Source: Theionarchaea archaeon
GTDB taxonomy: Archaea > Methanobacteriota_B > Thermococci > Methanofastidiosales > SZ-28-30
Assembly: GCA_018992685.1 (NCBI GenBank)
Contig: JACVGT010000008.1
Coordinates: 3,257-67,256 of the forward strand
Direction of reading: 5' to 3'
DNA: 64,000 nucleotides
Shown here piece by piece: positions 32,251 through 60,367 of the stretch; within the stretch, counting starts at the first letter, position 1; the number at the start of each line of letters is the position of its first letter. The position numbers were made by a program, and so were the translations under genes. The notes under the pieces were generated by a model. The model was not told the origin of the DNA and ran no database searches. It was given only the letters and a program-made list of their open reading frames with translations.

Positions 32251-32263
32251 GAGGTGAAAAAAA

Positions 32264-33205
32264 GTGTTTAATGATGTGGTAACCCAGATGAAAACGGAAC
32301 TCCACAAAGTCATTGTGGGGTATGATTCACTTCTGGAATTGCTGTTGGTTTCCTTCTTCTCTTCTGGACACTGTCTCCTGGAAGGAGTGCCGGGGACAGC
32401 CAAGACCTTGATGGTGAGAGCGTTGTCCAAGATACTGAGTCTTGATTTCTGTAGAATTCAGTTCACTCCGGATTTGATGCCTTCAGACATTATTGGAACC
32501 AATGTCTTTGACTTGGACACGGGGACATTCCACCTGAAGAAAGGTCCCATCTTCACCAATCTGCTCCTTGCCGATGAAATCAACAGGGCCCCTCCCAAGA
32601 CACAGGCTGCTTTGCTGGAAGCCATGGAAGAACGACAGGTGACCATAGATGGAGTGACGCATCCTCTTTGTGAGTTCATGGTATGTGCCACTCAGAACCC
32701 CATTGAGTACGAAGGAACCTATCCTCTACCTGAGGCGCAGCTGGACCGGTTCATGATGAAATTGGCGGTCCCCTATCCTGACATCAAGGAAGAGGTTGAC
32801 ATACTCCAGCTCTATCAGACGGGGTTTGATGCACATAACTTGGATGCCATCCACTTTGACTACCGTGTGGACCAGGAACAGATTGAGGCTATCAGGAAGG
32901 AGATCTTCCAGGTGAGAATTCAGCCTGAGGTCATGGAGTACATCACCAGGATTGTCAGAGCCACCAGAGAGTCACCTCACGTTGTCCTGGGTGCCAGCCC
33001 TCGAGCATCTGTGGTGCTCTTCCAGACGGCAAAGAGTTTTACAGCCATGCAGGACGAACAATTCGTTACTCCTGATACTGTGAAACGGATGGCTTTTCCT
33101 GTGATGCGCCACCGGATTATTCTGAAACCTGAAGCTGAAATTGAAGGGTTGACAGCAGACCAAGTGATTGCAGAGTGCCTGGAAAAGGTGGAGGTGCCCC
33201 GGTAG
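32264..33205 (+). CDS. MoxR-family AAA+ ATPase
   Basis: 'LLEGVPGTAKT' Walker A, 'LLADEINRAPPKTQAALLEAMEE' Walker B/sensor. 313 aa. Confidence 0.9.
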   Translation: MFNDVVTQMKTELHKVIVGYDSLLELLLVSFFSSGHCLLEGVPGTAKTLMVRALSKILSLDFCRIQFTPDLMPSDIIGTNVFDLDTGTFHLKKGPIFTNLLLADEINRAPPKTQAALLEAMEERQVTIDGVTHPLCEFMVCATQNPIEYEGTYPLPEAQLDRFMMKLAVPYPDIKEEVDILQLYQTGFDAHNLDAIHFDYRVDQEQIEAIRKEIFQVRIQPEVMEYITRIVRATRESPHVVLGASPRASVVLFQTAKSFTAMQDEQFVTPDTVKRMAFPVMRHRIILKPEAEIEGLTADQVIAECLEKVEVPR

Positions 33206-34488
33206 TGGTTCCTTCTTCTCGATGTGTAATCCTTTTTGCTCTGGGCTGTCTCGTGGCTGTACTAGGGAAGGCTCCATACTACAATGCTGTGGTCCTTGCC
33301 GTAATCATTACTGATTTTCTGATTTCATATAGACAGTCTTTCGTTCTAACGCGAGATTTTGACCCTGTCCTTTCCATTGGGGTGGAGAATCCAGTCTCCA
33401 TAGGAGTGGAAAACAATTCACCAGCCCCCCTCCGTCTCCTCATAAAGGATGAGTACCCTACAGGATTTTCCAGCAGCTGTCCTGAACTCTCAACCACGAT
33501 CCCTGCCTTTGAATCTGAGACTCTCAGGTATACGGTCACCCCCTATAAACGAGGAGAATACCTGTTTGGAACCTGCTTTGTCCGGAGAAGAAGCAGGCTG
33601 GGACTGTGGCTTTTTGACGAGGCTGTTCCGATGAAAGAAGATGCCCGGGTCTATCCCAATGTCCAGATGGTAAGAAAGTATGATCTTCTGTCAAGAAAAC
33701 AGATGTTGAACCTGGCCGGGATAAAGCCTTCCAGAATCTTTGGGCAGGGTACAGAATTTGAAATGCTCAGAGATTACCAGGTGGATGATGAGTACAGGGC
33801 GATAGACTGGAAGGCCACATCCAAGAAAGGAACACCTGTTTCCAGAGTGTACCAGGTGGAAAGAACTAAGAGAGTAGTGCTGATGCTGGACACGGGAAGA
33901 ATCATGGGGGTCAATGTGGGGGATTTGACCAAACTGGAGCATGCTGTCAATTCTGCCCTGCTGGTCTCTTTTGTTGCCCTGCGACTGGGTGAACGGGTGG
34001 GGTTATGTACTTTCTCTTCAGAGATAAAAGAGTACATACCTCCGCAGGGAAGACAGATCCAGTTCCCAATCATCTTGAAAACACTATACAATGTTAAGGG
34101 TGATTCTTTTGAATCTGACTACAAGAAAGCCTTTGAGTTCGTGGCCTCTCAAAACAAGAAGAGGACCTTGGTGATTGTGTACACTGATTTGATTGAAAGC
34201 CATATTTCCAGAGGATTGATTCAGTACTCAGCAGCTCTTCAAAGAGCTCACCTTCCCATGGTGGTTGCAGTCAAGGATACAAACATAGCCCACATTGCCA
34301 ATAGCATTCCCGGGTCGGAACGAGAACTGTACCAAAAGGCAGTGGCTCTGAGTCTGCTAAAAGAGAGGAAGAAGGCCATAGCCGAATTGACGAGAAGAGG
34401 AATGCGAGTGGTGGATGAACTCCCCGAGAATCTGACCATTTCCACCTTAAACAAATACCTGGAGTTGAAACACACATACAGAATCTAA
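33175..34488 (+). CDS. DUF58 protein (vWA-like partner of MoxR)
   Basis: 'FEMLRDYQVDDEYRAIDWKATSKKGTPVSRVYQVERTKRVVLMLDTG' is the DUF58 hallmark. N-terminal TM helices. 437 aa. Confidence 0.8.
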   Translation: MPGKGGGAPVVVPSSRCVILFALGCLVAVLGKAPYYNAVVLAVIITDFLISYRQSFVLTRDFDPVLSIGVENPVSIGVENNSPAPLRLLIKDEYPTGFSSSCPELSTTIPAFESETLRYTVTPYKRGEYLFGTCFVRRRSRLGLWLFDEAVPMKEDARVYPNVQMVRKYDLLSRKQMLNLAGIKPSRIFGQGTEFEMLRDYQVDDEYRAIDWKATSKKGTPVSRVYQVERTKRVVLMLDTGRIMGVNVGDLTKLEHAVNSALLVSFVALRLGERVGLCTFSSEIKEYIPPQGRQIQFPIILKTLYNVKGDSFESDYKKAFEFVASQNKKRTLVIVYTDLIESHISRGLIQYSAALQRAHLPMVVAVKDTNIAHIANSIPGSERELYQKAVALSLLKERKKAIAELTRRGMRVVDELPENLTISTLNKYLELKHTYRI

Positions 34489-40662: not shown

Positions 40663-42501
40663 CTACTCGCTTGTTGGAATGAGATTGGACACGCTTCTGA
40701 AGGAGGGGTTGGTTCTGGCAAGCCGCTCTCTCACCAGAGGGAACAATTCCAGGTTGGAGTGTGGAAAATACATCGCATCCACGAACTCCTGCTGAAAGTC
40801 CTTCCGAGATGAAAGCTCCACATAGTTGACAGATTCAGAAATTACCCGGGCCTTCTTCCTTTCTTTCACTGAAAGTAAACACAGCTTGGCCCCCACCCCC
40901 GCTGCGTTCCCTATACCCTTGATCTTCTCTGTAGGGATGTCAAAGATCAATCCGATGTCCTTTGCTGCCTCCTTGGGAATGTAGTTACCAAAGGCACCTG
41001 CCAATGCGATTTCTTCAACATCCTTCACTGTCACTCCGTACGTCTTCAGCAGAATCCTCTGGGCTGCAAAAATCGCTCCCTTGGCCAACTGGATCTCTCT
41101 CAGGTCTTTCTGAGTAACTGCAATTGCACCATTGATCACGAACGAATCGTTTTTCATCCTGGAGGCAAACCTCTCACTTGTCTGGAGCTTCCCAGCCGCA
41201 TTGATCAAACCATTTCTGAGCAGCTCTGCTGTTACACTGATCAACCCAGAGCCAGCAATTCCCTGGGGTGGCTCGTCATCAATCGTGTGGACTGTCACGT
41301 GGTCATTGATCTCCACCCGTTCGATAGCCCCGGGCGCTGCCCGCATCCCGTATCTGATATGGGTGCCTTCAAAAGCAGGGCCTGCAGCAGTAGAACAGGC
41401 CAAAACCCTGTCCTCCGTTCCCAGAACTACTTCACAGTTTGTTCCTATATCAATAAGGAGGCGCAAACGGTCATCAAGAGGATGCGCAATGATATCTGCC
41501 ACGGTATCTGCTCCCACAAATCCCGCTATCATTGGGAGCACATACATTCGCTTTCCATACAGTGTGGAAGGAACAGACAGGGGTTCTTTCACCACAGGAA
41601 TATAGGGGGAAACAGCCAGACTGCGGGGAGAAATACCCAGGAGCAGATGCTGCATGCAGGCATTTCCCGCCACTACCAGCTCATAGACTTCGCCTTTTCT
41701 TGTTCCAGCTGCATCTGCAAGTTCGGTGATAATGCCCATAAGGCAGTCTCGCAGTGATCTACGCAACCGGTCCAGATTCTCAGGATTCTGAGCAAAATTG
41801 ATCCTGGAAATGACGTCATCCCCATAACTGATCTGTGGATTCATCCTGGCCTTGACAGCGCATTGTTCTCCTGAATTTAAATCCATGAGGTAACCCACCA
41901 CAGTGGTCGTTCCGACATCAAAGGCCACTCCGAAACAACGATCACTGGTGTCACCTCTCTCGCATCCCACCAGTTCATCTCCCAGGAGAACCAGAGTGAC
42001 CTCGAATTTGGAATCCCTCATGGCCACGGGTATTTGGTTCAGAGCTTCCAGGCTGACAGACCTCATATCGTACTCCATCGAGTCCCTCAGCCTCTCTACA
42101 TCCGTCCTGTTGTCCTCCAGAGACGGTTCTGGGAGCTTGAGGAAGATCTTCTTGACATTGGGGGCTAATAGTATCTTTCTGGTGACCCCTTCCACCAGGA
42201 TACGCTGCTTTCTGGCCAGCGATTCCTCGGGTATGTAGACAGTAAGGTTTTTGTCAACAATAGCCTGACATGCCAATCTGAACCCTCGTCTCAACTCATT
42301 CTGGGAGAAGAATTCCATTTCCTCTTCAGTGTATCCTTCGTAGCCAGATACCTGCACCTTACACTTGCCACACAACCCTTTTCCTCCACATTCAGCGCGC
42401 AGCTGGATCCCTGCGGCGTGTGCGGCCTCCAGTACTGTGTGCCCTGGTTCCACCAGAAGGCGTTTTGCTGAGGGTTGAAAGGTTACCTGAAGGCTGACCA
42501 T
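40663..42501 (-). CDS. RACo-like ferredoxin-ASKHA ATPase (COG3894 / DUF4445; reductive activase family). Probable start MVSLQVTF; the track ORF extends to 42600.
   Basis: N-terminal plant-type 2Fe-2S ferredoxin 'CGGKGLCGKCKV...ACQ', followed by an ASKHA fold 'VAFDVGTTTVVGYL'. Confidence 0.75.
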   Translation of the reverse strand: MVSLQVTFQPSAKRLLVEPGHTVLEAAHAAGIQLRAECGGKGLCGKCKVQVSGYEGYTEEEMEFFSQNELRRGFRLACQAIVDKNLTVYIPEESLARKQRILVEGVTRKILLAPNVKKIFLKLPEPSLEDNRTDVERLRDSMEYDMRSVSLEALNQIPVAMRDSKFEVTLVLLGDELVGCERGDTSDRCFGVAFDVGTTTVVGYLMDLNSGEQCAVKARMNPQISYGDDVISRINFAQNPENLDRLRRSLRDCLMGIITELADAAGTRKGEVYELVVAGNACMQHLLLGISPRSLAVSPYIPVVKEPLSVPSTLYGKRMYVLPMIAGFVGADTVADIIAHPLDDRLRLLIDIGTNCEVVLGTEDRVLACSTAAGPAFEGTHIRYGMRAAPGAIERVEINDHVTVHTIDDEPPQGIAGSGLISVTAELLRNGLINAAGKLQTSERFASRMKNDSFVINGAIAVTQKDLREIQLAKGAIFAAQRILLKTYGVTVKDVEEIALAGAFGNYIPKEAAKDIGLIFDIPTEKIKGIGNAAGVGAKLCLLSVKERKKARVISESVNYVELSSRKDFQQEFVDAMYFPHSNLELFPLVRERLARTNPSFRSVSNLIPTSE

Positions 42502-42927
42502 GAAGGTACATGCTTGAGAACAGATAAAAAGCTTTGCTATCAAATGAAGGAGGTCTATTCTGTGATATGTCCAGCAGAGAGCGTACTTTACATATATCAA
42601 GGTTCAGAGGTACCTATCATCTTCATATACCCTGAGACCTCATACTCTACATATACCAAGGCCCCAAAGTGATATTCAGGTAGAATTTATGTCACATTAT
42701 GCTTCTCATGGAGCAGAAGGAGCATACATTCCTGTTAACAGTATTCGGTGAGCGGTGGATAATTCTCAAGGAATGTCTCCCTGGGACGCAAGGGTGAGGA
42801 CTCTGAATTCGGGAAGGTCCTGGGTTCTCTATCCACCTCACCCGGTCAACCACAGGTCTGGAGACTACTCCACGATGAGCTTCAAGCTGCAAAACCTTTA
42901 ATAAAGAGCTGCAACAAGAGAGAACAA

Positions 42928-47224: not shown

Positions 47225-47383
47225 ATGATGGTGGAAAAAGATTTATGTATGTACTGTGGCTGTTGCGCCAGCGTCTGTCCATTCAGCGGTGTTATTGTTA
47301 CAGATTATGATGTTCAGGTCACAGATACCTGTACAGACTGCAAGACCTGCGTCAGAGCTTGCCCCATGGGGGCGATCCAATGA
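47225..47383 (+). CDS. 2x[4Fe-4S] ferredoxin (52 aa), absent from the ORF track, translationally coupled to the geranylgeranyl reductase
   Basis: Hand translation gives MMVEKDLCMYCGCCASVCPFSGVIVTDYDVQVTDTCTDCKTCVRACPMGAIQ, i.e. two CxxCxxCxxxCP motifs. Its TGA overlaps the GGR ATG (MRECDVL...) as ATGA. Coordinates are ±1 nt. Confidence 0.65.
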   Translation: MMVEKDLCMYCGCCASVCPFSGVIVTDYDVQVTDTCTDCKTCVRACPMGAIQ

Positions 47384-48555
47384 GAGAATGTGATGTCCTT
47401 GTGGTGGGAGCAGGCCCGGCAGGAAGTATTGCAGCCCTAACTGCAGCCCCTCACTGCGACGTAGTGGTACTTGAGAAGAGAGCCCACATTGGGGTACCGA
47501 AGCAGTGTGCAGAAGGAACCAGTGAAGCGATTTTTGAGAAACTGGGCATACCACTGAGCCCCAAATGGGTATCCCGAAAGATCGAGTTTGCCCGGTTGAT
47601 ATCGCCTTCCAGAATCGCGGTTGATCTTAAAGATGAAAGAGTTAAACAACTCAAGTTTGGGTATGTTCTTGAAAGAAAGAAATTTGACAAAGCTCTTGCA
47701 GAGTTGGCGGCCAAGAAGGGAGCCGAGTTCTATCTGCGGACGCAGTATCAGGGACTGAAGCGAGAGGACAACCATGTTGTGATAAAAGCACGACAGTTTG
47801 ATAAGGACCTGACCTTCAAAGCTCGGATTGTCATCGCTGCAGATGGGTTAATGTCACGGGTTGCTAAAGATTTCGGCATTGATTCCACCACCAAGTTGAG
47901 ACATCTTGAGTCATGCTGCCAGTACGAGATGACAGGAATGGAACGAGAAAGCTGTATAGAACTGTATTTTGGAAATGAAATTGCTCCTAAAGGGTATGCA
48001 TGGGTATTTCCCAAAGAGGGTGATGTGGCAAATGTGGGAATTGGCATTCTGCCCACCAAAGCCGAATACCCGGCAAAATACTATCTGGATAAATTCGTCA
48101 GCTGGTTGGGGCTTTCTGGAACGGTTGTAGAAGTAAATGCAGGGGGAGTTCCTGTGGGTGGTCCACTGGATCAGACCTATGACGATAACCTACTCATAGC
48201 AGGAGACGCGGCACATATGGCAAATCCCATCTCAGGAGGAGGTATTCATACTGCCATGCTGTCGGGGAAGTTTGCAGGTGAGACTGCAACAAGAGCCCTG
48301 GAGTCGCAGAGTACTGATAAGGAGACTCTCTCTGAATATGAAACACGGTGGAAAGCAGACTTCGGCAGAGAACTTGACCTGTCACTGAAGGGACGGTTCA
48401 TCTTGGAGGAGTTCACTGATGAAGACTTTGACGCCACAGCGAAATGGATGAACGAGAAGGGGGTTGGTCAACTGGGTGCTCTGGACCTGGTAAAATTCGC
48501 TTTAAAGAGGCATCCCAAGTTTGCCATCAAGTTTGCGTCATTCCTTACTTCCTAA
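47359..48555 (+). CDS. Geranylgeranyl reductase (digeranylgeranylglycerophospholipid reductase family). Probable start is MRECDVL at ~47380.
   Basis: 'CDVLVVGAGPAGS' FAD motif. 'GDAAHMANPISGGGI' is typical of GGR/ChlP-family flavoproteins. 398 aa. Confidence 0.85.
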   Translation: MPHGGDPMRECDVLVVGAGPAGSIAALTAAPHCDVVVLEKRAHIGVPKQCAEGTSEAIFEKLGIPLSPKWVSRKIEFARLISPSRIAVDLKDERVKQLKFGYVLERKKFDKALAELAAKKGAEFYLRTQYQGLKREDNHVVIKARQFDKDLTFKARIVIAADGLMSRVAKDFGIDSTTKLRHLESCCQYEMTGMERESCIELYFGNEIAPKGYAWVFPKEGDVANVGIGILPTKAEYPAKYYLDKFVSWLGLSGTVVEVNAGGVPVGGPLDQTYDDNLLIAGDAAHMANPISGGGIHTAMLSGKFAGETATRALESQSTDKETLSEYETRWKADFGRELDLSLKGRFILEEFTDEDFDATAKWMNEKGVGQLGALDLVKFALKRHPKFAIKFASFLTS

Positions 48556-48892: not shown

Positions 48893-49732
48893 GTGACCAT
48901 GGATATCAAGACACTGCTCGAATTGACCCGTCCCATAAACGACATCATGTCCGGATTTGCTGTCTTCATTGCAGGAGCAATATCAGTGGGATGGCATATG
49001 CCACTCATGAGTCTGGCGGCTGCCTCCCTGGGTACTTTTTTTGCATCTGCAGGGGGAATGGTAATCAATGATTATTTTGACATTGACATAGACAGCGTCA
49101 ATCGTCCTCATAGACCCATACCTAGCAACAGAATAACTCGTCGGGGAGCATTACAATTCTCGCTGTTCTTATTTATGGGAGCTGGAGTATGCGTGCTGTT
49201 CACCAATGTGTGGTGCATCGTGGTGGGGCTCCCTGCGCTATTCTTGATCATTCTGTATTCCTGGAAGTTGAAGAGACGGCTGTTTGTGGGAAATCTGGCA
49301 GTAGCCCTGCTTTCTGCCCTGGCCCTACTGTATGGGGGGATTGCCGCGGGTAATATCCAGCTGGTATCCATCCTGGCCCTGATTGCCTTCTTTGCCACTG
49401 TTTCCAGAGAACTGGCAAAAGACATTGAGGATATTAAGGGCGATCGAATAGGAGGATCTCAATCTGTGCCTGTCCTCCTTGGAGAGAATCTGAGTGCCCA
49501 GATTGCAGGTGGGTTTCTTGCCCTGGCCATTTGTACATCACTGCTCCCATATGTGCTTGGGATCTTCGGCAACCTGTATCTGGTGCTGATAGTACCCGTA
49601 AACCTGGTCATGGGGTTTGTTATGGTGCAGATGTTCCTGAAGAACATTGAGAGAATACCAGTGTGGCAGAAAATGCTCAAAGTAGGAATGTACGTTACTC
49701 TGGGAATCTTCCTGGCAGCACGATTCATTTGA
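48893..49732 (+). CDS. UbiA-family prenyltransferase, digeranylgeranylglyceryl phosphate (DGGGP) synthase-like
   Basis: 'VINDYFDIDIDSVNRPHRPIPS' (first Asp-rich motif) and 'KDIEDIKGDR' (second). 8-9 TM helices. 279 aa. Confidence 0.8.
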   Translation: MTMDIKTLLELTRPINDIMSGFAVFIAGAISVGWHMPLMSLAAASLGTFFASAGGMVINDYFDIDIDSVNRPHRPIPSNRITRRGALQFSLFLFMGAGVCVLFTNVWCIVVGLPALFLIILYSWKLKRRLFVGNLAVALLSALALLYGGIAAGNIQLVSILALIAFFATVSRELAKDIEDIKGDRIGGSQSVPVLLGENLSAQIAGGFLALAICTSLLPYVLGIFGNLYLVLIVPVNLVMGFVMVQMFLKNIERIPVWQKMLKVGMYVTLGIFLAARFI

Positions 49733-50606
49733 GGGGTGGTACACTAAACTTGAGGGCCTTTTCATACATGTGAAAGGTTGCGGGTGTGTCTCCAATGTAT
49801 TCCCCTTCCACGTGAATCGAAAGAGGCTGATGGGAGTGCAGTTCCACATGACGCCCCCTGAAAGCTCCCACTTTTGGATTGTTCAGATGCGTTCCGCGGT
49901 ATAATGTAGGTAATTTCACCAGTGATTCAAGTCTGCTGAGATCTCCAATGACAATGATGTCGAATAACCCGTCATCTACTTCCGCATGTGGTGCGATATT
50001 CATGCCTGCTCCCACATATTTTCCGTTAGCTACATCCACAAACATGACCTTCTGATCAATGTGCACATCATCAACAGTCAGAGAAACGTCGATGCTCCGG
50101 TAATCTGCCAGATGCTTCAGAATTCCCATGACGTACGGGACAGTTCCCATTTTAGGTTTTGTGACCTGGCTAGTAGTCTTGGAAACCAACCCGTCGAATC
50201 CCATGCCCGCCACGCCAATGAAATACCTCTTTCCACCACTGAACGTCACGCATCCTGCATCCACGCTGCGAACCACATCCTGGGAGATGGAACGGGATGC
50301 AGCAATGCAATCAGACACCAGTCCTGCAGACTTCACAAAGTCGTTTCCTGTTCCTGTTGGAATGACTGAGAGTACAATATCCCTCCCCATGATACCATTG
50401 ATAATCTCGTTTAGAGTGCCGTCTCCCCCCACTGAAGCAATAACATCAAAGCCATTGTTCTCTGCAGCAATAGCAGTAGCGTGACCCCTCTCTTCCGTGT
50501 GCTGCACTTCAAAATCGTACTCCATGTCACGAAATACGCTCTTTATGGCAGGCCAGTACTTACAGGTCCTTCCTGCCACCGGATTCACTATAGCGAGAAT
50601 TCGCAC
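49725..50606 (-). CDS. Diacylglycerol-kinase-catalytic-domain lipid kinase (YegS/BmrU/LCB5 family)
   Basis: 'ILAIVNPVAGR...VIASVGGDGTLNEIINGI' is DAGK_cat. 293 aa. Convergent with the DGGGP synthase gene with an 8-nt overlap. Confidence 0.7.
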   Translation of the reverse strand: MRILAIVNPVAGRTCKYWPAIKSVFRDMEYDFEVQHTEERGHATAIAAENNGFDVIASVGGDGTLNEIINGIMGRDIVLSVIPTGTGNDFVKSAGLVSDCIAASRSISQDVVRSVDAGCVTFSGGKRYFIGVAGMGFDGLVSKTTSQVTKPKMGTVPYVMGILKHLADYRSIDVSLTVDDVHIDQKVMFVDVANGKYVGAGMNIAPHAEVDDGLFDIIVIGDLSRLESLVKLPTLYRGTHLNNPKVGAFRGRHVELHSHQPLSIHVEGEYIGDTPATFHMYEKALKFSVPPLK

Positions 50607-51017: not shown

Positions 51018-51623
51018 GTGTCCAGAACGTTGTGCAGGCAGGATGATGGAATGCAGCTCCCCAAACAAAAAAAACTCTACAGCGATCTTGAAACGAGATT
51101 CACAGATTTGGAATCTCTCATCAGAGAGCTGAAAAAAAGGAAGCTTACAGGAGTGCTAAAACTGACGTTCGATGCGTGTGAGGGAGTGAGCATCTTTGAT
51201 GAAGGAAGAATTATTGACGGATACGAGATATATGGGGAAGAAATGCCTGTCAAGGATCGGAAAGGACATAATATTATGGAACGTTCCCAGATCGAACCAG
51301 GAAAGATCGACGTATATGAACTGCCACGGGAGATTCTTCAGATATTCATCATGACACTCAGAGAGCGGCCCACTCAGACTCTCCACACCATGTATGCAGA
51401 TTTCAAGAAGCTGCTCAACTTCTATGTTCAGAGGAAACTCTATGGCACACTGGAAGTGAAAACATCTCAGGGGAAGGGATATGTCTTGCTGGACGCTGGA
51501 AAGCCTATTGATGTTTTTTTTGGCGATAGATGTGGCAGCGAAGCTCTGGATCAGCTGCTAGAATGTGTTGATAGGGAAGATGTAGAGATCAGCATCTACT
51601 CACGAGAGGGAGGTGTTCGATGA
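51018..51623 (+). CDS. Hypothetical protein with two tandem ~90-aa DUF4388-like domains
   Basis: Internal duplication: 'LTGVLKLTFDACEGVSIFDEGRIIDGYEIYGEE' and 'LYGTLEVKTSQGKGYVLLDAGKPIDVFFGDRCG'. Confidence 0.45.
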   Translation: MSRTLCRQDDGMQLPKQKKLYSDLETRFTDLESLIRELKKRKLTGVLKLTFDACEGVSIFDEGRIIDGYEIYGEEMPVKDRKGHNIMERSQIEPGKIDVYELPREILQIFIMTLRERPTQTLHTMYADFKKLLNFYVQRKLYGTLEVKTSQGKGYVLLDAGKPIDVFFGDRCGSEALDQLLECVDREDVEISIYSREGGVR

Positions 51624-52495
51624 AGCATGAAGGATACCATGACATAGGCAGTCGGATGAAGTACAAAGAGTGGTGGGATTTCTATTTCTTTTCCCGGAGA
51701 GAGAACCTTGTCTTTTCCTTTATCATGCTGAAGTCCAAGATCAGGGACCATCTCAGCAGCTGCATATGGAATTTCAAGAAGGACGAGAGGATCGAACTGA
51801 GCTTTGATTCAGGAATAGAAGCTTCACAGGAAGACTACACAGATTTACACGCTGAAGGAAAATGGGGAACTGCATCAGTGAAGGGGAAATACGAAGAAGG
51901 AGGATGGGAACTCAGAATCAAGAATCCAGAATTCTCTGCGGATCTCTTCTACTCTCCAGATTGTCCTCAGAAGATCATTGAGCGGTTCTGGGATGATCAG
52001 TTCAAGTGTGAGTTGTTCCCCAAGGTTACGGTTACCGGGACGCTTGACGCCTTCGGGAGAACATATGAGATCAACACGTACGGGTGCAGGGAGCATACGT
52101 TCTGCGACTTTCCCCGCAATGTTGCATGGAACTGGGTGATTGTACTCCACGATGATTATTCCGTTGTGGTTTCCCAGGGAGACTATTCAGGATTTGATTA
52201 CAAGTATGCCGTCATGTTCTGTGAGGGAAAGTGGGTTGATCTGGACGCAGACGTTGATTTTGTGGTGGATGAAGATCACCTTCTGAAAACCTGCAAGGTG
52301 ACCTCTGCTGACATGAACCTGGATATTTACCCTATCAGGCACCGGTACGAACATAAAAAGATACTGCTTGGTCTTCTTGTGGACTCTCACTACTGGGAAC
52401 TCCCCACACGAATTGCGGGAACTGTCACCTTCAAGGATAGGAAGGTGCCAGTAGAAACCTATGGAATCATGACTCGGTCTAGAATGAAGTGGTAG
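51620..52495 (+). CDS. Hypothetical protein, CrtC/AttH-like (lipocalin-like hydratase family) candidate, paralog A
   Basis: N-terminal 'KYKEWWDFYFF' resembles the aromatic 'WWY' motif of CrtC carotenoid 1,2-hydratases (e.g. GGYAWWYVDA). 291 aa. Paralogous to the next gene. Confidence 0.35.
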   Translation: MKHEGYHDIGSRMKYKEWWDFYFFSRRENLVFSFIMLKSKIRDHLSSCIWNFKKDERIELSFDSGIEASQEDYTDLHAEGKWGTASVKGKYEEGGWELRIKNPEFSADLFYSPDCPQKIIERFWDDQFKCELFPKVTVTGTLDAFGRTYEINTYGCREHTFCDFPRNVAWNWVIVLHDDYSVVVSQGDYSGFDYKYAVMFCEGKWVDLDADVDFVVDEDHLLKTCKVTSADMNLDIYPIRHRYEHKKILLGLLVDSHYWELPTRIAGTVTFKDRKVPVETYGIMTRSRMKW

Positions 52496-52566
52496 CTTCC
52501 ACCCTGTGCTCGAGGTGTACCACATCACATTGACAATAGTTATAAACTCATTCTCCTATAGCAATT

Positions 52567-53610
52567 ATGGAAGTAAAGGACGAGGACAAGAAACTCCATG
52601 ATGACGGCATCTTAGACAGTCTCATGGGCTACAAGGAATGGTTCCACTTTCTGGGCACCTTTTTTGTTGATGAAACTCCGTTGTCATTTATGCTGGGCTT
52701 TCCCAGGAGTTTTACTGGGATGGGTGCTTTTGGATGGATTGCTTTTCAGAAGAACCAATACTCCCTGGTAGGAAACCCGGATCAAGACAAAGATGGATTC
52801 TTCGATCTTCAGAGAATCCCTGTTAAGTTCCAGACTACAACGTCCGGATACGAGCTCTGGTACGTGGCAGAACCACAACCGCGCAACATATACCATGGTA
52901 TCATTGAGGGGAACTATCCTCACTATGCCCTGGAGATTGAAACACCTCAGGTAGACATCAAAATGACCATGGACATCGAGCTTGACCCGTGTTCAGTTAC
53001 CACCAAAGAGGTTTTCAGCTGGATGCCTTTTGAAAAAAGAATCGCCAGCTGGTTTCATTCAGGGGATATCACAATGTCGTTGAAGGGCACCGTAAGGGGC
53101 GAAGATGTGACAACAAGCAGCAGAAAAAATCGAGGATGGTATGAACGCATGTGGTCCAAGATCCCTGTGTGCTGGCCTTCTGAATGGTTGTGGATCATGT
53201 CACACCCGGAGACGGGAGCAGTCCTTGACCTGTATATTGCCACATCTCTGGGAATTAGAGTGCGGCCCCTGGATGAGTGCTGGCTGTACATCAATGGAAA
53301 ATTTCATCCTTTTCGTGAGTATACTGCCGAATTTCCCCGCACCCTGGAGACAGCTATCAGAGAAAAGAAGTATCCTGACATCATTGGGAAAGAAATCCAC
53401 TGTGAGGGACGTGATGGAGACAATTCTTTTGACCTTACCGCCGAGATTACCGATTTCCGGCAATATGAATACAAAGATTACAGTGCACGGGTTAAATACG
53501 TCAATTTCTTCTTTGATACCACAGGTGAAGCAGTCATCGACGGAACTGCCACAACCCTGAACGGGAAAGGAGCTGCAGAGCGCGCTCCTATGCTGTACTG
53601 GTGGATTTAG
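52567..53610 (+). CDS. Hypothetical protein, CrtC/AttH-like candidate, paralog B
   Basis: 'GYKEWFHFLGTFFVDE' is the same N-terminal motif as paralog A. 347 aa. Confidence 0.35.
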   Translation: MEVKDEDKKLHDDGILDSLMGYKEWFHFLGTFFVDETPLSFMLGFPRSFTGMGAFGWIAFQKNQYSLVGNPDQDKDGFFDLQRIPVKFQTTTSGYELWYVAEPQPRNIYHGIIEGNYPHYALEIETPQVDIKMTMDIELDPCSVTTKEVFSWMPFEKRIASWFHSGDITMSLKGTVRGEDVTTSSRKNRGWYERMWSKIPVCWPSEWLWIMSHPETGAVLDLYIATSLGIRVRPLDECWLYINGKFHPFREYTAEFPRTLETAIREKKYPDIIGKEIHCEGRDGDNSFDLTAEITDFRQYEYKDYSARVKYVNFFFDTTGEAVIDGTATTLNGKGAAERAPMLYWWI

Positions 53611-53619
53611 AGAGGGGCA

Positions 53620-55683
53620 TCAGTCTGCAGGGACCCTTACACACATGGGACGAGAAAGTGTGTCGTTCATGTCCCAGGCGACCTGCAGTATGCCCATTCG
53701 TTCTACGCCACGGGGCCCATCTAGATGAATTTCACCTGCTTCTCCGCAGTAGATACCCTGTCCCCTGTCATGGGCTTCACAGACGAGAATGGTGTGACCA
53801 TCAGTGCTGGCCAGAGAATGCTTCCAGCCCAGGGGAGTCTCAGTAACCTCCACCGGCGAGGTGCACCTCATCGTAATGACAATCCGGGTGAGTGTGCTTC
53901 CCTCCTTCAGATTTGTCACCCGCCACCTGTATGTCGTATGCAGCCCAAAGAAGTCGGCCACGCGATCTGATACTTCAAAGGTCTCTCTCAGCCCAATTTC
54001 CCCAAAAGAGCGCCTGGCAGATTCTCGCAGAGATACCAGCTCAGACTGATGGACCACAATTCTGATCCTGTCCCTGGTGTACACCCCATGGTACCCTGGA
54101 GGACTCAACTTGACAGCCTCTGCGCCCCCTTCCTCATTCTGTATTCCAATGGGACCAGACGATATGGCATTGCAGAAAACGGGCCCTCTCTTGAGGGCAT
54201 TCCCATCTCTCAGAATGACGTGAGGGCCTTCCACCTGGAATATGCCTGTCCTGTGAGCATGGCCCGTGAGTACGATGTCCACTCCCTTTTCAGGAATGGC
54301 TGTGTAGCCCATCCTCCCATAGAGGCTGCTTCCAAGGCACACCCTGATAAACTCATTCCGTTTCAACCGGAAGGTTCCATCCACCAGATCCTTCTGTGGC
54401 TCATAGTGATCTGTCAGCCCGCTGGTGTAGAAGATGTTGGTCTCAGGATTGGCAGCAACCTCCCGATCCCCTATCTCGGGGAAGGGGTTAAAGACTGAAC
54501 AGTGCATTGCCACCACCGAGACTACCGGGTTCCTCTTCCTGTGATTGATAACTTTCTTCCGCCACAGGGTCAGAGTCTTCCATTGTCTTGGAGAGAGGGC
54601 CTTCTCTGCCCAGGGGTTGCCCTCCTCATGATCTTCTCCCAGGTTCCAATCAAGCATCAGAAAGGCCATGTTCCCGTAAAAGAACTGATAGTCAAGAAGA
54701 GGGTTGAGAACAAGAGCATACCATCGCACAGCGTAGGGAGCTTTTAAAATGTGATTCTTGGTGATGTTGAGTGCGTGAGGGTCTTCATGGAGACCATTCA
54801 TCTCGGTGCGAGTCAGGTTGACGGTCGGCGCCATGTTGAAGAACTCGCGGATCCTCCTGGACAGGATCAAAGGATTGGGGGGATATGGATTAAGCCGGTA
54901 ATCATGGTTACCCAGCACAGAAAAGAAGGGTTTCTCATAGGTCCTGTACAGTATCTGGTAAAAGAGAGCCCAGTTTCTGTCCAGGTGATAATCTCTTGAC
55001 AGGTCGTTTTCCCCATCCGGGTTGTGATATCCTCTGTTGTAGTCGGTGATGTCTCCTGTGTGAATGATGATGTCCACATCCTTGTTCTGGGCTATCATGG
55101 TCAAAAGATGCTCAACCTGAGCATTGTAGTTTGAGAAATCACCTGGTTTTCCTTCCTCCAGACAGGATTGAGACCGCACATCATGGTAATTGGAATTCCA
55201 CCTGTCTTCCAGCAGGTAGAGCCTGTTTGCCATGTGACTGTCTGACATGTGGGCAATGTTCAGGTAGTCAGACTTCCCGATGTAGAAGGGGTGGTACAGC
55301 TTCACAGAGTCATCCAGGAAGGAGTCGGGAGACTCCCGCCTGAGAATGTGGGCAACCTGTTCATCCGAGGAATGGGCCAACTGGTACAACCCCTTTGACA
55401 CAGACAGCCTGATCCGTGCCCTCACCAGCCGGGTGAGCCCTTCTTTCTTGTATGCTGAGAGCACAAACTCTGATATGTGGCAATCTGATGGGACAAAATT
55501 TACCATTTCAATATCCTTTCTGTCAAGTGACTTTGATTTTCCTTTCTTCCATGGTGAATAGGACAGTTCACAGAGTTCGTCCTGATGAAATGATTTGGTC
55601 GTCAGAAGAAGAACATCCACTTCATCTCCCTTCTTGAAGAGACCGGGGCATGCGAGAGCCGGAGTAAGGACAACAAAGCTCAT
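53620..55683 (-). CDS. Large calcineurin-like metallophosphoesterase (687 aa) with extra N- and C-terminal domains
   Basis: 'DIIIHTGDITDYNRG', 'SVLGNHDY' and 'VLTGHAHRTG' give the GD / GNH(D/E) / GHxH metallophosphatase motifs. The start overlaps the upstream flavoprotein stop (ATGA). Confidence 0.7.
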   Translation of the reverse strand: MSFVVLTPALACPGLFKKGDEVDVLLLTTKSFHQDELCELSYSPWKKGKSKSLDRKDIEMVNFVPSDCHISEFVLSAYKKEGLTRLVRARIRLSVSKGLYQLAHSSDEQVAHILRRESPDSFLDDSVKLYHPFYIGKSDYLNIAHMSDSHMANRLYLLEDRWNSNYHDVRSQSCLEEGKPGDFSNYNAQVEHLLTMIAQNKDVDIIIHTGDITDYNRGYHNPDGENDLSRDYHLDRNWALFYQILYRTYEKPFFSVLGNHDYRLNPYPPNPLILSRRIREFFNMAPTVNLTRTEMNGLHEDPHALNITKNHILKAPYAVRWYALVLNPLLDYQFFYGNMAFLMLDWNLGEDHEEGNPWAEKALSPRQWKTLTLWRKKVINHRKRNPVVSVVAMHCSVFNPFPEIGDREVAANPETNIFYTSGLTDHYEPQKDLVDGTFRLKRNEFIRVCLGSSLYGRMGYTAIPEKGVDIVLTGHAHRTGIFQVEGPHVILRDGNALKRGPVFCNAISSGPIGIQNEEGGAEAVKLSPPGYHGVYTRDRIRIVVHQSELVSLRESARRSFGEIGLRETFEVSDRVADFFGLHTTYRWRVTNLKEGSTLTRIVITMRCTSPVEVTETPLGWKHSLASTDGHTILVCEAHDRGQGIYCGEAGEIHLDGPRGVERMGILQVAWDMNDTLSRPMCVRVPAD

Positions 55684-56990
55684 AATAAGGATTCACCTCT
55701 CAGAACGTTCAGGAGATCCACAACAGAATAAGAAGCACGGGTGATGCCCATGCTCTTCTTGACTGTATCAGTTCCCACAACATAGAGATCAGGGATAGGA
55801 GTTGTAATAGGGGGAAAGGGAACAGTGGTCCAGGCAGCCTTGTCTGGCTGCAGCACCTGGGTATGGATCATGTCGATAGAGATATCAGGAATCATCTCCT
55901 CAACGGCTTGTAAGGCCTTCTTTTCGATATTGTCCTCATAGGGGAAGGCAAATCCAAGAAGCTGATGTCCCTCAGGGGACAGACCCGGGTCATAGAGAGA
56001 TGTTGGGACCACCCAGCAGGGAGGGTCTGTATCTACCCAGATCTCAGACCCTGCTCTTTCAATAACGGTGTCAGGTGTTCCCACCCACACAGCGAATGCT
56101 GTGGTTGTCTCCAGCTGCGACACTGTGGCCCTGTATTCAGGGGGCACGTCTGTGATCCTGGGGAGGTCCTTCACCATACCGGAATACACTACAAGATCAT
56201 AAGGATATTCGTGTTCTTCAGTGGATACCACATGCTGGCCTACATCAATGTGGGTTGACTCCTCTCTGATAACTGTTCCCGTGAAGCTTTTCAGTACACA
56301 GTCGGTGAGAGATTGGATTCCCCCCACAGGATAGAACTGATCCTGCCTGGTGTTCTGTCCCAGCAGGCTCAGCGCTTTCTTCACCATGTTACCGTCACCA
56401 TCTTTGTACTTCTGGGAATCCCAGAACCGTGAAATTGGGACCTCCTGGGGAGATACACCAGCCAGAAAGTGACACAGTGCAGCCACCAACCTTCCAGTAC
56501 TGGGAGACAGATCATATCGATTGGTGAATTGTTCCACAGAGAGAGACTTGTCGGGGAGCAGAATGCCATCCACGATACATCGAATCAGAGTGATGCGCTC
56601 TCGTGGTGGGACGGTATCAAAAGTGAGGAAATCCTTGAGGGCCCATGGGAACCTGCCACGTGCTCCATTCATTCGCAGGGAATAGTCACCATGGGGGACA
56701 AATGTGGGTTCACAGGTGAAATATCTGTCCATCAAGGAGCGAAGAGGACCTGAGATGAGGCGAGTCAGAATATGGGGTCCTGTATCCACAATATACGTTC
56801 CTGAATCACCTTCCACGGGGTACGATCTCACCACATTACCTATTTCTCCTCTTTCCAGCACTGTAACCTTCTTTCCTTCTCTTTGAAGGGCAAGTCCCGT
56901 TAGAAGGCCGCTTATTCCTCCTCCAATGACAGTGACCCGGTTCACGTGAGTCTTGCTATCAAAAGACATATAAAAGGTTTGTGTGTTCAC
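55680..56990 (-). CDS. FAD-dependent oxidoreductase of the amine-oxidase/CrtI (phytoene-desaturase-like) superfamily
   Basis: 'RVTVIGGGISGLLTGLALQREGKKVTVLE' is a dinucleotide-binding fold. 436 aa. No TM segment. Confidence 0.7.
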   Translation of the reverse strand: MNTQTFYMSFDSKTHVNRVTVIGGGISGLLTGLALQREGKKVTVLERGEIGNVVRSYPVEGDSGTYIVDTGPHILTRLISGPLRSLMDRYFTCEPTFVPHGDYSLRMNGARGRFPWALKDFLTFDTVPPRERITLIRCIVDGILLPDKSLSVEQFTNRYDLSPSTGRLVAALCHFLAGVSPQEVPISRFWDSQKYKDGDGNMVKKALSLLGQNTRQDQFYPVGGIQSLTDCVLKSFTGTVIREESTHIDVGQHVVSTEEHEYPYDLVVYSGMVKDLPRITDVPPEYRATVSQLETTTAFAVWVGTPDTVIERAGSEIWVDTDPPCWVVPTSLYDPGLSPEGHQLLGFAFPYEDNIEKKALQAVEEMIPDISIDMIHTQVLQPDKAAWTTVPFPPITTPIPDLYVVGTDTVKKSMGITRASYSVVDLLNVLRGESLL

Positions 56991-57235: not shown

Positions 57236-57880
57236 TCAGTTTCTTTTTTCAATATTGAGAGCCTTTCGAACCGCTTCTGCATGTATTTTTCCTGCTTCGT
57301 GAATGGAGCCCCTGGGACCTGACGATGATTGACAGTAGTACTGAGAGAGAAGTCCTGCTTTTTGGCACGCTTCTTCTGCAGGCACTCCCACCAGGTTCTT
57401 AGCAACAAAATCTGCATCCCCACATCGAGTATGGCACACGACAGTAACCTGAGTTATGACATCATCGTGGACGGTAATGGAGAAGGAAGGTGCTCCAAAC
57501 TCCTGCCGGAACTCCTGGATGACTGAATTCTTTGAAGGGGGGATCACACAGCAGGGCTTCAGAACCCCCACCAGGAGAGAGTTAATCTCATGGTAGCCCG
57601 GAGGCAGGGGTGCTTTGCTGTACGGCATCAGCAGGACGCTCCTTTTTGACTTCAGAAGATCAATGACAGCCAGGTTGATATCAGGGTGAAGGGCATACGA
57701 GAGGACGAGATCACAGTCACAGAACACTGGTAGCTCTACAGCATCGTTCTCCATCAAAGGAGGAAGGTTCTCACTGATATCCCAGGTTTGGGCGAGTAGG
57801 TTCTTCTTCCCATGCGTCACGAGCGTCTCCTTCACCACTTTACCAAGGTTCCCCCTGGTAATCAGGCATACCCTGTTCAT
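57236..57880 (-). CDS. Hypothetical Cys-rich protein, DUF166-like
   Basis: 214 aa. Conserved Cys positions (FCDCD, KPCCVIP, VVCHTRCGDADF, YYCQ). Resembles the archaeal DUF166 family. Confidence 0.35.
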   Translation of the reverse strand: MNRVCLITRGNLGKVVKETLVTHGKKNLLAQTWDISENLPPLMENDAVELPVFCDCDLVLSYALHPDINLAVIDLLKSKRSVLLMPYSKAPLPPGYHEINSLLVGVLKPCCVIPPSKNSVIQEFRQEFGAPSFSITVHDDVITQVTVVCHTRCGDADFVAKNLVGVPAEEACQKAGLLSQYYCQSSSGPRGSIHEAGKIHAEAVRKALNIEKRN

Positions 57881-59254: not shown

Positions 59255-60367
59255 CTAGGATTGCTTGATGGCCTCAACCACAGCATCTCCTACCTGTGAG
59301 CATCGAGCTTCTCCTCCCAGGTCGTACGTGAGTGGTTTTCCCCTTTGAAGAACAGAGCCCACAGCCTTCTCCACAGCCCCTGCAGCCTCTTTCGCCCTGT
59401 CATCAGACTTCTTCTCGCCCAAATAAGAGAGCATCATCTGAACTGAAAGAATACTGGCTATAGGGTTTGCTTTGTCTTGACCCGCATACTTGGGAGCAGA
59501 GCCATGAACAGGCTCAAACATGGCATGGCTGTCACCAATATTGGCAGAAGCAGCCATTCCCATTCCCCCCTGTAGTACTGATGCCAGATCTGTGGCAATG
59601 TCTCCCAGCATATTAGAAGTAACAGCGACATCATAAAATTCCGGGTTCCGAATAATCCACTGAGTGAAAGCGTCGATGTATGAATAATCCCTCTCTACAG
59701 GGTATGTAGGAGCGATCTCATCATAGACCTGTCTGAAGAGCTGACATCCATTCATGACATTGCTCTTGTCCACACAGGTCACCCGTCGCTTCCCATCTTT
59801 GGGCGCCCCTTTTCGGTTCATGCACAATTTAAATGCAAATCGGATAACTCTTTCACAGCCCTTTCTGGTGATAATCCTGGAATCCACCGCCAGCTCTGTT
59901 ATTCCTCCTCTCTTCAAGAATCCCCTGGTAGGAGTGTAGCAGCCCTCAGTGTTCTCTCTGACAATAACAAAGTCAACACTCTCTGGCTTCCAGACCTGCC
60001 TGAACTCGTTGCAGATTCTGTGCCTGACACCCGGATAGAGTTTCGTGGGCCTCACATTCGCATACAGATCCAGCCCGAACCGAAGACCAAAAACAACTCC
60101 AGCTCCCGCCAGGTTTCCATCAGGAAGGGTTGCACCAGGCCATCCGATGGCTCCCAGTACAACGGCATCAGCCTTTTTACAATCTTCAAAGGCCTCATCA
60201 GCGCATTCTTTCCCCGTCTCAAGATAGTATTGACCGCCACAAGAATATGATTCACAGTGAAAAGAAATCCCATAATGATCAGAAACTGCTTCCAGAACCT
60301 TCCTTCCTTCACGGGTGACCTCACGGCCCACGCCATCTCCTGGCAAAAAAATGATGCGGTAACTCAT
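59255..60367 (-). CDS. Isocitrate/3-isopropylmalate/tartrate dehydrogenase-family protein
   Basis: 370 aa. 'IIFLPGDGVGREV', 'NLAGAG', and an 'NLFGDILSD'-type 'NMLGDIATD' with a Gly-rich tail. Confidence 0.8.
   Translation of the reverse strand: MSYRIIFLPGDGVGREVTREGRKVLEAVSDHYGISFHCESYSCGGQYYLETGKECADEAFEDCKKADAVVLGAIGWPGATLPDGNLAGAGVVFGLRFGLDLYANVRPTKLYPGVRHRICNEFRQVWKPESVDFVIVRENTEGCYTPTRGFLKRGGITELAVDSRIITRKGCERVIRFAFKLCMNRKGAPKDGKRRVTCVDKSNVMNGCQLFRQVYDEIAPTYPVERDYSYIDAFTQWIIRNPEFYDVAVTSNMLGDIATDLASVLQGGMGMAASANIGDSHAMFEPVHGSAPKYAGQDKANPIASILSVQMMLSYLGEKKSDDRAKEAAGAVEKAVGSVLQRGKPLTYDLGGEARCSQVGDAVVEAIKQS

Follow-up and report, generated by a model that had tools for sequence, protein, structure and literature searches.

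A lineage-specific archaeal gene cluster beside ether-lipid genes is a plausible lipid-chain tailoring locus

Five genes at positions 51,018 to 56,990 of a 64,000-nucleotide stretch of DNA from a Theionarchaea archaeon (the window) lie close to genes of ether-lipid synthesis, which raises the question of what they do there. The initial annotation read them as two convergent operons that might modify isoprenoid chains, and the five open reading frames and their operon arrangement are all borne out in the sequence (Table 1). The ATGA overlap between FLAV and MPE is present as claimed (55680-55683), as is a second one between the DUF4388-like gene and the gene for protein A (51620-51623), and both are preceded by GGAGG-type ribosome-binding sites. 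The B and MPE genes converge on each other with a gap of 9 bp. The FLAV protein as deposited has 421 residues, so that its start is probably near 56945 rather than 56990. The proposed double DUF4388 domain scores above the PF14332 gathering cutoff in two weak stretches, but only marginally (27.3 vs. 25 bits).

Table 1. Genes of the candidate locus and its lipid-gene context, with positions in the window.
Feature	Position	Strand	Domain evidence
2x[4Fe-4S] ferredoxin, 52 aa (context)	47225..47383	+	two Cys clusters: CxxCxxxC...CP, CxxCxxxCP
Geranylgeranyl reductase, GGR (context)	47359..48555	+	Pfam GGR_cat 1e-21; TIGR02032 232 bits vs. cutoff 158.8
UbiA-family DGGGP synthase, DGGGPS (context)	48893..49732	+	Pfam UbiA 3.9e-44
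YegS/DAGK-type lipid kinase	49725..50606	-	Pfam DAGK_cat and YegS_C; TIGR00147 164 bits vs. 118.65
DUF4388 (PATAN-like) protein, 201 aa, two weak repeats	51018..51623	+	PF14332
Protein A, 291 aa, AttH/CrtC fold, clade-restricted family	51620..52495	+	
Protein B, 347 aa, AttH/CrtC fold, clade-restricted family	52567..53610	+	
Metallophosphoesterase MPE, 687 aa, additional N- and C-terminal domains	53620..55683	-	Pfam Metallophos 3.5e-13
FAD flavoprotein FLAV	55680..56990	-	Pfam Amino_oxidase, NAD_binding_8

The ferredoxin-GGR-DGGGPS module lies upstream, DGGGPS being about 1.3 kb from the DUF4388-A-B operon as had been noted, and the identities of GGR, DGGGPS and the YegS-type kinase were confirmed by Pfam and NCBIfam. 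The best NCBIfam models for DGGGPS are geranylgeranylglycerol-phosphate geranylgeranyltransferases, with scores under their equivalog cutoffs. The ferredoxin reading frame overlaps the start of GGR and stands outside both operons, while the lipid kinase gene is convergent with DGGGPS and divergent from the DUF4388-A-B operon. A PADLOC scan returned nothing relevant to a defence-island reading and no defence-system signal. Scans for sigma-70 promoters and terminators, models that are not applicable to archaea, gave counts at or below shuffle expectation.

The isoprenoid-hydratase fold of A and B, taken together with the occurrence of FLAV relatives beside lipid genes, suggests that this candidate locus probably modifies membrane-lipid chains. 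Independent evidence for a role in lipid metabolism comes from the FLAV homologs of other lineages. Among 82 loci, nine have a gene for Tes, CarS or GGR immediately upstream, and on the same strand, of a full-length homolog (34-44% identity), where about 0.2 would be expected by chance. These nine loci represent at least six other lineages (Tes in three lineages, CarS at four loci and GGR at two), and all neighbour calls pass or far exceed curated cutoffs. The arrangement was seen in Altiarchaeota, DPANN, Methanocellales, a Methanosarcinales archaeon (Met12) and Thermoplasmatota; the FLAV of the window groups with three such loci, L034 (CarS-adjacent), L013 (Tes-adjacent) and L024 (GGR-adjacent). 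The proposed conservation of a lipid-gene neighbourhood thus extends, for FLAV, to other phyla, and its recurrence beside Tes, CarS and GGR points to the family as uncharacterised enzymes in the biogenesis of archaeal membranes.

By motif and domain content, FLAV belongs to the PF01593 superfamily of amine oxidases, CrtI and PPOX (residues 26-368; 41.8 bits vs. a cutoff of 19.8), with an invariant GxGxxG...E FAD-binding motif (G23, G25, G28 and E46). Compared to the PDB, its family profile matched 3KA7 (1.9e-22), the CrtD-like 4REP (1.3e-20) and PF1083 (5.8e-17), whereas true amine oxidases were matched only at the Rossmann N-terminus. The curated crtI_fam model TIGR02734 matched all 40 members of the family, with a best E-value of 1.9e-20, but FLAV itself falls far under its cutoff (30.7 vs. 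238.1 bits), aligning in the N-terminal Rossmann region only. Judged from these profile comparisons, FLAV belongs to a distinct and widespread archaeal branch on the CrtI/PPOX side of the superfamily and is not an amine oxidase; the earlier description of a CrtI-type protein therefore holds at this level, but not in the sense of strict CrtI family membership. The family also occurs in Methanothrix soehngenii, ANME, DPANN archaea and CPR bacteria, with no Methanococcales among the relatives listed. It should be noted that CPR bacteria make no archaeal lipids, and their FLAV homologs count against a lipid-tailoring reading. The cluster containing the Methanosarcina homolog included neither an M. 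acetivorans member nor a protein identical to 3KA7.

Proteins A and B both have the two-barrel all-beta AttH fold. Neither gave an NCBIfam match, nor a Pfam match to CrtC (PF07143) or AttH even at E-values up to 10, so that the resemblance is visible in structure only; the CrtC/AttH-like label stands for the fold and fails for the sequence families. The same can be said of their description as paralogs, which applies at the fold level only: BLASTP detected no similarity between them (E 0.13) and hhalign found a weak one, collinear over 260 columns (E 0.0025, probability 12%). The aromatic motif 'EWW(D/H)F' had been attributed to both; B in fact reads EWFHF, and the motif common to the two is YKEW[WF]x[FY].

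Aligned by sequence alone with the catalytic residues of CrtC (His239, Trp241, Tyr266 and Asp268 in R. gelatinosus numbering), B has an invariant H164 and W191-Y192-E193 with the same 27-residue spacing as His239...Tyr266-x-Asp268, but has no Trp at His+2 and a Glu in place of the Asp. In A, C156-R157-E158 aligns with this region and there is no equivalent of the His. Polar or charged barrel-motif residues are invariant in both families (C156-R157-E158-H159-T160 in A; H164, Y192, E193 and R194 in B), which suggests catalysis rather than passive binding. The family A profile gave only chance matches to endonuclease IV in the PDB. A metagenome scan with the B-family alignment recovered at least one fragment, and no ANME or Bathyarchaeota proteins were named among the A and B homologs listed.

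MPE has the full set of calcineurin-like motifs (DxH, GD, GNH[DE], H and GHxH) and a Pfam Metallophos score of 50.9 bits. In an alignment of 19 homologs, D148, H150, G210-D211, G258-N259-H260 and H394 do not vary, and G474-H475-x-H477 is nearly invariant. Neither the family profile nor a single-sequence search found a relative in the PDB, and the family is rare, with 206 representatives among 1.84 billion. Its remote relatives are large envelope-type proteins with OmpA, Big_13 or C39 domains, an observation that counts against a lipid-tailoring reading.

A, B and MPE were found only in Theionarchaea/Methanofastidiosia, in a single block that is syntenic throughout. The whole 20 kb from RNase HII to AsnRS, including PCMT and MgtC, is collinear at two further loci (L003 and L005), which also keep the position of the lipid kinase and the 4-bp overlap between the DUF4388-like gene and A; both ATGA couplings are kept in genomes with 49-75% protein identity to the window. 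As the block includes housekeeping genes, the adjacency of A, B and MPE to GGR and DGGGPS may be plain synteny and carries little independent weight, and their link to lipids stays inferential. A second B-family paralog adjoins an Mrp-Mbh hydrogenase, not lipid genes, and a more divergent Methanofastidiosia genome has FLAV without MPE, A or B. Co-occurrence with lipid genes is thus seen for FLAV in other lineages, but for the other three proteins it is confined to one class and to synteny of the whole block.

We propose, at a confidence a little short of even, that the locus is a lineage-specific module of the Theionarchaea/Methanofastidiosia for tailoring isoprenoid chains on intermediates of archaeal membrane lipids. 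The predicted substrates of FLAV are geranylgeranyl chains that are still unsaturated at the DGGGP or CDP-archaeol stage; it would hydrate them as MA0127/Has does, or carry out a related isomerisation or saturation. In A and B, putative cofactor-free enzymes of the AttH/CrtC fold, a conserved carboxylate (Glu193 in B, Glu158 in A) would protonate a trisubstituted double bond of the isoprenoid, and addition of water would yield a tertiary alcohol. Such a hydration is carried out by CrtC, by kievitone hydratase and by Hgs, a hydroxy-GDGT synthase; the reverse elimination might also occur. MPE, apparently co-translated with FLAV and with an intact predicted dinuclear metal site, may cleave a lipid head-group phosphoester or a polyprenyl (pyro)phosphate. 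On this proposal, both operons would act jointly with the kinase and the phosphoesterase in one pathway.

A doubtful but possible alternative is that FLAV alone is lipid-related, the DUF4388-A-B operon and MPE acting on hydrophobic or phosphorylated substrates of another kind (polyprenol/dolichol, quinones or a secondary metabolite, for example) and lying near lipid genes through synteny. The conservation of the full 20-kb block, AsnRS, PCMT, RNase HII and MgtC included, would fit this explanation, as would the B paralog beside Mrp-Mbh and the finding that FLAV is accompanied by A, B or MPE at none of the 82 other loci and not in L088. In addition, nine Altiarchaeota-type FLAV genes overlap a gene for a GT4 polyprenyl-phosphate glycosyltransferase, which makes carriers of the dolichol type another candidate substrate. 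This alternative accounts less well for the conserved translational coupling of FLAV to MPE, for the mostly isoprenoid chemistry known for the AttH/CrtC fold and for the divergent intergenic region that the lipid kinase shares with the A-B operon. We think it unlikely that A and B are non-catalytic barrels for lipid binding or transfer, like lipocalins or Svf1, with the DUF4388 protein serving as an adaptor for regulation or targeting. In favour of this, no activity is known for the founding AttH structure, the CrtC-tetrad His is missing from A, and the genes for the DUF4388 protein and A are closely coupled; against it, polar and charged barrel-motif residues of both proteins are invariant.

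Flanked as it is by a lipid kinase and a phosphoesterase, the operon also recalls the pairing of 25-hydroxysteroid kinase with 25-phosphosteroid lyase. By this precedent, a tertiary hydroxy-isoprenoid would receive a phosphate from the kinase; A or B would then remove it by elimination, leaving an alkene, and MPE would recycle phospho-intermediates. We consider this very unlikely, as there is no sign of a YegS-type kinase acting on tertiary alcohols, other AttH-fold structures score equally well or higher and the kinase belongs to a separate transcription unit. A broader version is similarly improbable: A, B, the kinase and MPE would carry out an oxygen-independent interconversion of hydroxylated and unsaturated archaeal lipid chains via a phospho-tertiary-alcohol, by a logic likened to that of the same steroid enzymes, and FLAV would represent a new widespread lipid-chain family distinct from Has, alongside Tes, CarS and GGR. 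Finally, the superfamilies involved are those of CrtI and CrtC, but a relic, or a variant form, of the classical carotenoid pathway, with a CrtI desaturase and a CrtC hydratase, is barely conceivable and was rejected: FLAV scores far under the crtI_fam cutoff, A and B have no CrtC Pfam match, the FLAV family adjoins Tes, CarS and GGR rather than carotenoid genes, and, in agreement with the initial annotation, the window ORFs scanned included no phytoene synthase, nor any cyclase.

Hydroxylated and unsaturated archaeal lipids such as OH-archaeol and OH-GDGTs are widely used as biomarkers and palaeothermometers. To our knowledge, only two enzymes are known to make such lipids, Has of the CrtI family and the AttH-like Hgs. 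Divergent members of both superfamilies adjoin GGR and DGGGPS here, in an uncultured sediment-dwelling class, and are thus concrete candidates for further lipid-tailoring reactions. MA1486 had been taken for the CrtI-type hydratase of Methanosarcina acetivorans; it is in fact the radical-SAM tetraether synthase Tes and not a CrtI homolog. The hydroxyarchaeol hydratase of this organism is MA0127 (Has), reportedly described as a hydroxyarchaeol synthase by Mori et al. in 2015, which has the homolog MMP0146 in Methanococcus; the claim that it is encoded next to GGR found no support in the sources consulted.

How, then, do these proteins compare with known systems? Three of the four known enzyme activities of the AttH/CrtC fold (CrtC, kievitone hydratase and 25-phosphosteroid lyase) target a terminal isoprene unit, and geranylgeraniol, a C20 compound, is a further substrate of CrtC. 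Against a lipid-tailoring reading, Diels-Alderases and proteins of no known function share this fold. A and B differ from CrtC (PF07143) and kievitone hydratase (PDB 7A0Q) by their low identity (10-14%) and lack of a CrtC match in Pfam, and from CrtC by the replacement of Asp by Glu and by C-R-E-H in place of the aromatic-x-Asp motif in A. The putative AttH NE1406 (PDB 2ICH, 14% identity) has no known function, and 25-phosphosteroid lyase (PDB 9FZN) is a bacterial catabolic enzyme of anaerobic sterol degradation, whereas nothing at the locus indicates a phospho-tertiary-alcohol substrate.

The direct precedent for A and B is Hgs, an AttH-like hydratase that makes hydroxy-GDGTs in archaea and has reported homologs in Methanofastidiosum, a relative of the source organism (Garcia et al., bioRxiv 10.1101/2025.10.20.683597). 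They resemble it as archaeal, putatively cofactor-free AttH-superfamily proteins that would hydrate a lipid-chain double bond. Going by its description, Hgs differs in being recognisable as AttH-like by sequence and in that its gene overlaps that of the B12-radical-SAM desaturase Ted; the one radical-SAM gene of the window (361 aa, 23446-24531) is more than 27 kb away from A and B.

For FLAV, the best full-length matches to its profile, 3KA7 of Methanosarcina mazei and 3NRN (PF1083) of Pyrococcus furiosus, are remote (83 and 65 bits, respectively) and uncharacterised structural-genomics flavoproteins, and the Methanosarcina member of the FLAV family differs from the 3KA7 ortholog. Indirect signs of a relation between the family and Has are mixed: its low crtI_fam scores, the absence of Methanococcales from its listed relatives in spite of MMP0146, and its presence in DPANN archaea and CPR bacteria point to differences. 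Like Has, FLAV is a CrtI-superfamily flavoprotein that would act on unsaturated archaeal lipid intermediates, and its family is likewise represented in ANME and among hydroxyarchaeol producers, for example Methanothrix soehngenii; the family is associated with archaeal lipid-core genes at 9/82 loci.

All five reading frames of the initial annotation are present in the window, which comes from a MAG of Theionarchaea, and the ATGA coupling it described between FLAV and MPE is there, preceded by a GGAGG-like ribosome-binding site. The DUF4388/A junction is likewise an ATGA overlap behind such a site. The Pfam match to DUF4388 is marginal (27.3 bits vs. a cutoff of 25), and the deposited FLAV protein has 421 aa, so its true start probably lies about 45 bases inside the ORF. 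Upstream of the operons, a 52-aa di-cluster ferredoxin overlaps the start of GGR, followed by a UbiA-type DGGGP synthase and a YegS-type lipid kinase.

Several other genes of the window were noted in passing. Immediately preceding the FLAV operon is a gene for DUF166 (DfsP-like), which occupies this place in the syntenic locus L003 as well. The isocitrate/isopropylmalate dehydrogenase gene between PCMT and DUF835 is missing from L003 and L005, both otherwise collinear, and is therefore a local insertion or loss. The 77-aa AsnC-type gene is the one called in syntenic loci, the 116-aa ORF being probably its shadow. At 27 kb from the locus, the genes of a GT2 glycosyltransferase and a radical-SAM protein converge; the latter has 361 aa, which is too small for Tes or Ted, and does not show the canonical CX3CX2C spacing. 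Upstream in the window (31285-34488 and 40663-42600) are a DUF4350/MoxR AAA+/DUF58-VWA cluster and a RACo-type corrinoid-protein reductive activase, both unrelated to lipids.

Features of the locus and of FLAV-family and B-family loci in other genomes (L handles)
Feature	Position	Strand	Remark
GT2 and radical-SAM genes	22411-24531		convergent
AsnC-type ligand-binding domain, 77 aa	46694-46927	-
ORF, 116 aa	46809-47159	+
DUF4388-like, 201 aa	51018-51623	+	ORF confirmed
A, 291 aa	51620-52495	+	ORF confirmed
B, 347 aa	52567-53610	+	ORF confirmed
MPE, 687 aa	53620-55683	-	ORF confirmed
FLAV, 436 aa as ORF	55680-56990	-	ORF confirmed
DUF166 gene	57236-57880	-
Dehydrogenase gene	59255-60367	-
Tes upstream of FLAV	L007:6481-9344	same	Methanosarcinales Met12; NF045702
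Tes upstream of FLAV	L013:2248-5161	same	Aenigmatarchaeota; NF045702
Tes upstream of FLAV	L048:194-3000	same	Methanocellales; NF045702
CarS upstream of FLAV	L034:35-1974	same	Thermoplasmatota; NF003114 above cutoff
CarS upstream of FLAV	L055:2496-4370	same	Methanobacteriota MAG; NF003114 above cutoff
CarS upstream of FLAV	L066:2022-3970	same	Altiarchaeota; NF003114 above cutoff
CarS upstream of FLAV	L085:7472-9335	same	Altiarchaeota; NF003114 above cutoff
GGR upstream of FLAV	L024:5841-8481	same	Altiarchaeota; GG-red-SF above cutoff
GGR upstream of FLAV	L060:6750-9287	same	Nanohaloarchaea; GG-red-SF above cutoff
GT4-FLAV overlap	L006:7031-9320; L008, L009, L011, L012, L014, L021, L022, L029		Altiarchaeota-type
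FLAV homologs, 35-38% identity	L051, L052, L054, L056, L058, L059, L061, L065, L068, L074		Patescibacteria/CPR, full length; spermidine-synthase-like neighbour in L052, L054, L056, L065, L074
Second B-family paralog	L001:2926-4008 (and L002)		Methanofastidiosia MAG

FLAV carries an FAD fingerprint and a Pfam Amino_oxidase domain, and scores 30.7 bits against the curated CrtI family (cutoff 238). A profile of 40 family members, compared with the PDB, found its best matches, all full-length, in 3KA7, an uncharacterised Methanosarcina mazei oxidoreductase (1.9e-22), the CrtD-type carotene desaturase 4REP (1.3e-20), 3NRN, P. furiosus PF1083 (5.8e-17), and protoporphyrinogen oxidases. With amine oxidases proper, LSD1 and L-amino-acid oxidases, the match is confined to the first ~50-70 residues. 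Judged by these profiles, FLAV belongs to the CrtI/PPOX side of the superfamily, where it forms a separate branch; the name 'CrtI-type flavoprotein' was right about the side, but is not supported at the level of the curated CrtI family. FLAV has full-length homologs, 34-44% identical, in Altiarchaeota, Methanothrix (including cultured M. soehngenii), ANME-1, ANME-2, Methanoperedens, a few Methanosarcina, Methanocellales, Methanobacteriaceae, Hadesarchaea, Bathyarchaeota and several DPANN groups. Patescibacteria carry them too, a surprising place for what may be an archaeal-lipid enzyme. At roughly half of the CPR loci the gene is divergent from that of a membrane-anchored spermidine-synthase-like protein, a neighbour also seen in two Altiarchaeota loci (L010 and L084).

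Protein B is 100% identical to HXS52_03600 and reads EWFHF where an EWW(D/H)F motif had been claimed for both proteins. No CrtC or AttH sequence model matched A or B, even at E up to 10, and the only hit of A, to DUF7065, is sub-threshold. BLASTP did not detect a relation between the two (E 0.13), and a profile-profile comparison was collinear over 260 columns, if weak (E 0.0025, probability 12%); they can be called paralogs only in so far as they share an ancient fold. Both families are small (26 clusters at 67-100% identity for A, 37 at 39-100% for B), with all named members from Theionarchaea or Methanofastidiosia. In fold comparisons, the two proteins scored 25.8 and 25.2 with AttH NE1406, 25.1 and 24.7 with the Diels-Alderase CghA, 25.1 and 24.4 with the Diels-Alderase Fsa2, 24.1 and 24.6 with kievitone hydratase, and 22.1 and 19.8 with 25-phosphosteroid lyase; all other structures scored <10, and the predicted CrtC/AttH-like fold is therefore confirmed. 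The second B-family paralog (L001), 42% identical to B, is on its own there, its neighbours being a cluster for an Mrp-Mbh membrane hydrogenase and an unannotated 314-aa protein.

All five metallophosphoesterase motifs are conserved in MPE (19 homologs), so the enzyme is probably active. Its family is a rare one: exhaustive searching of 1.84 billion representatives turned up 206 at E up to 0.001, with just one other full-length ortholog cluster among them. Profile searching detected no PDB relative, and OmpA, Big_13 or C39-peptidase domains are found in the remote relatives, which are large proteins; the sole functional clue is the conserved ATGA coupling to FLAV. The N-terminus, MSFVVLTPALAC, resembles a lipobox, but aligns with an internal conserved segment of homologs.

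Two further genomes of the class (L003/L004 and L005) keep the locus gene for gene, with proteins 49-75% identical to those of the window, but the whole RNase HII-to-AsnRS stretch is conserved there too, so that within-class synteny does not discriminate. Outside the class, Tes, CarS or GGR lies immediately upstream of FLAV, on the same strand, at 9 of 82 loci from at least six lineages; with ~4 such genes per ~2000 genes in a genome, ~0.2 neighbours would be expected by chance. The three Tes genes score 647-720 bits with NF045702 (cutoff 450). In nine Altiarchaeota-type loci the FLAV gene is instead overlapped by an upstream GT4 (WecA/AglH-type) polyprenyl-phosphate glycosyltransferase, a hint that the substrates of some family members may be carriers of the dolichol type and not membrane diethers. 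A neighbour-joining tree groups the window's FLAV with L034 (CarS), L013 (Tes), L024 (GGR), the GT4 set, Methanothrix and ANME-1. Neighbours and tree therefore give the family a connection to the synthesis of archaeal lipid cores that does not depend on this locus, and mark an uncharacterised CrtI-superfamily group as a probable archaeal lipid enzyme.

The reading with the best support, though a tentative one, makes the locus a lipid-chain tailoring module specific to this lineage. FLAV is fairly likely to be a lipid enzyme; at the DGGGP/CDP-archaeol stage it would convert unsaturated geranylgeranyl chains, by a hydration like that of Has or by a related redox or isomerisation reaction. MPE would cleave a phosphoester of a lipid or polyprenyl. 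The neighbourhood test proposed initially comes out in favour of FLAV, but A, B and MPE occur in 0 of the 82 outside loci, and L088, a more divergent Methanofastidiosia contig, has FLAV and lacks all three. According to the main rival, which we consider somewhat unlikely, the lipid role is limited to FLAV and the rest of the locus is there through synteny. A single pathway encompassing the whole locus is unlikely.

A and B may act on isoprenoid lipids, the reaction envisaged being acid-catalysed hydration or elimination at trisubstituted double bonds. The B-family profile matches kievitone hydratase at the motif WY[DE]RxW (E 0.003). Mutagenesis of CrtC identified His239, Trp241, Tyr266 and Asp268 as essential (PMC4717167); in B, an invariant His164 and W191-Y192-E193 stand the same 27 residues apart, whereas A aligns an invariant C156-R157-E158-H159 and the equivalent His is missing. 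We infer this mapping from sequence alignments, not superposed structures. Non-catalytic lipid-binding barrels are an improbable alternative for the pair. CrtC converts geranylgeraniol, and 25-phosphosteroid lyase acts downstream of a dedicated kinase, precedents that widen the range of plausible chemistry; a kinase/lyase phosphate-elimination system is very improbable here, and classical carotenogenesis hardly credible. A PADLOC scan gave no support for a defence island.

The concept is not categorically new, because each superfamily already has one characterised archaeal lipid hydratase. New are two divergent, clade-restricted AttH-fold families paired with a DUF4388 protein, the tying together of FLAV and MPE (a 'fusion of fates'), and the link of the FLAV family to Tes, CarS and GGR, which is widespread and apparently not described before. 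Archaeal-lipid biochemists thereby gain several directly testable candidates.

Among known systems, the CrtI homolog making hydroxyarchaeol in M. acetivorans is MA0127 (Has), not the 'MA1486-type' protein cited initially; MA1486 is Tes, the radical-SAM tetraether synthase, and a position of Has next to GGR was not found in the accessible literature. Hgs, an AttH-like hydratase, makes hydroxy-GDGTs: it adds water to the double bonds that Ted, a B12-radical-SAM desaturase, has put in, and homologs of Hgs are reported in ANME, Bathyarchaeota and Ca. Methanofastidiosum (Garcia, Chadwick, Nayak, Welander 2025 preprint, 10.1101/2025.10.20.683597). For AttH-fold enzymes that work on the lipid chains of archaea, Hgs sets a direct precedent. 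A and B are probably not its orthologs: their sequences do not reveal them as AttH-like, ANME and Bathyarchaeota are missing from the homologs listed for them, and no Ted-like gene is nearby.
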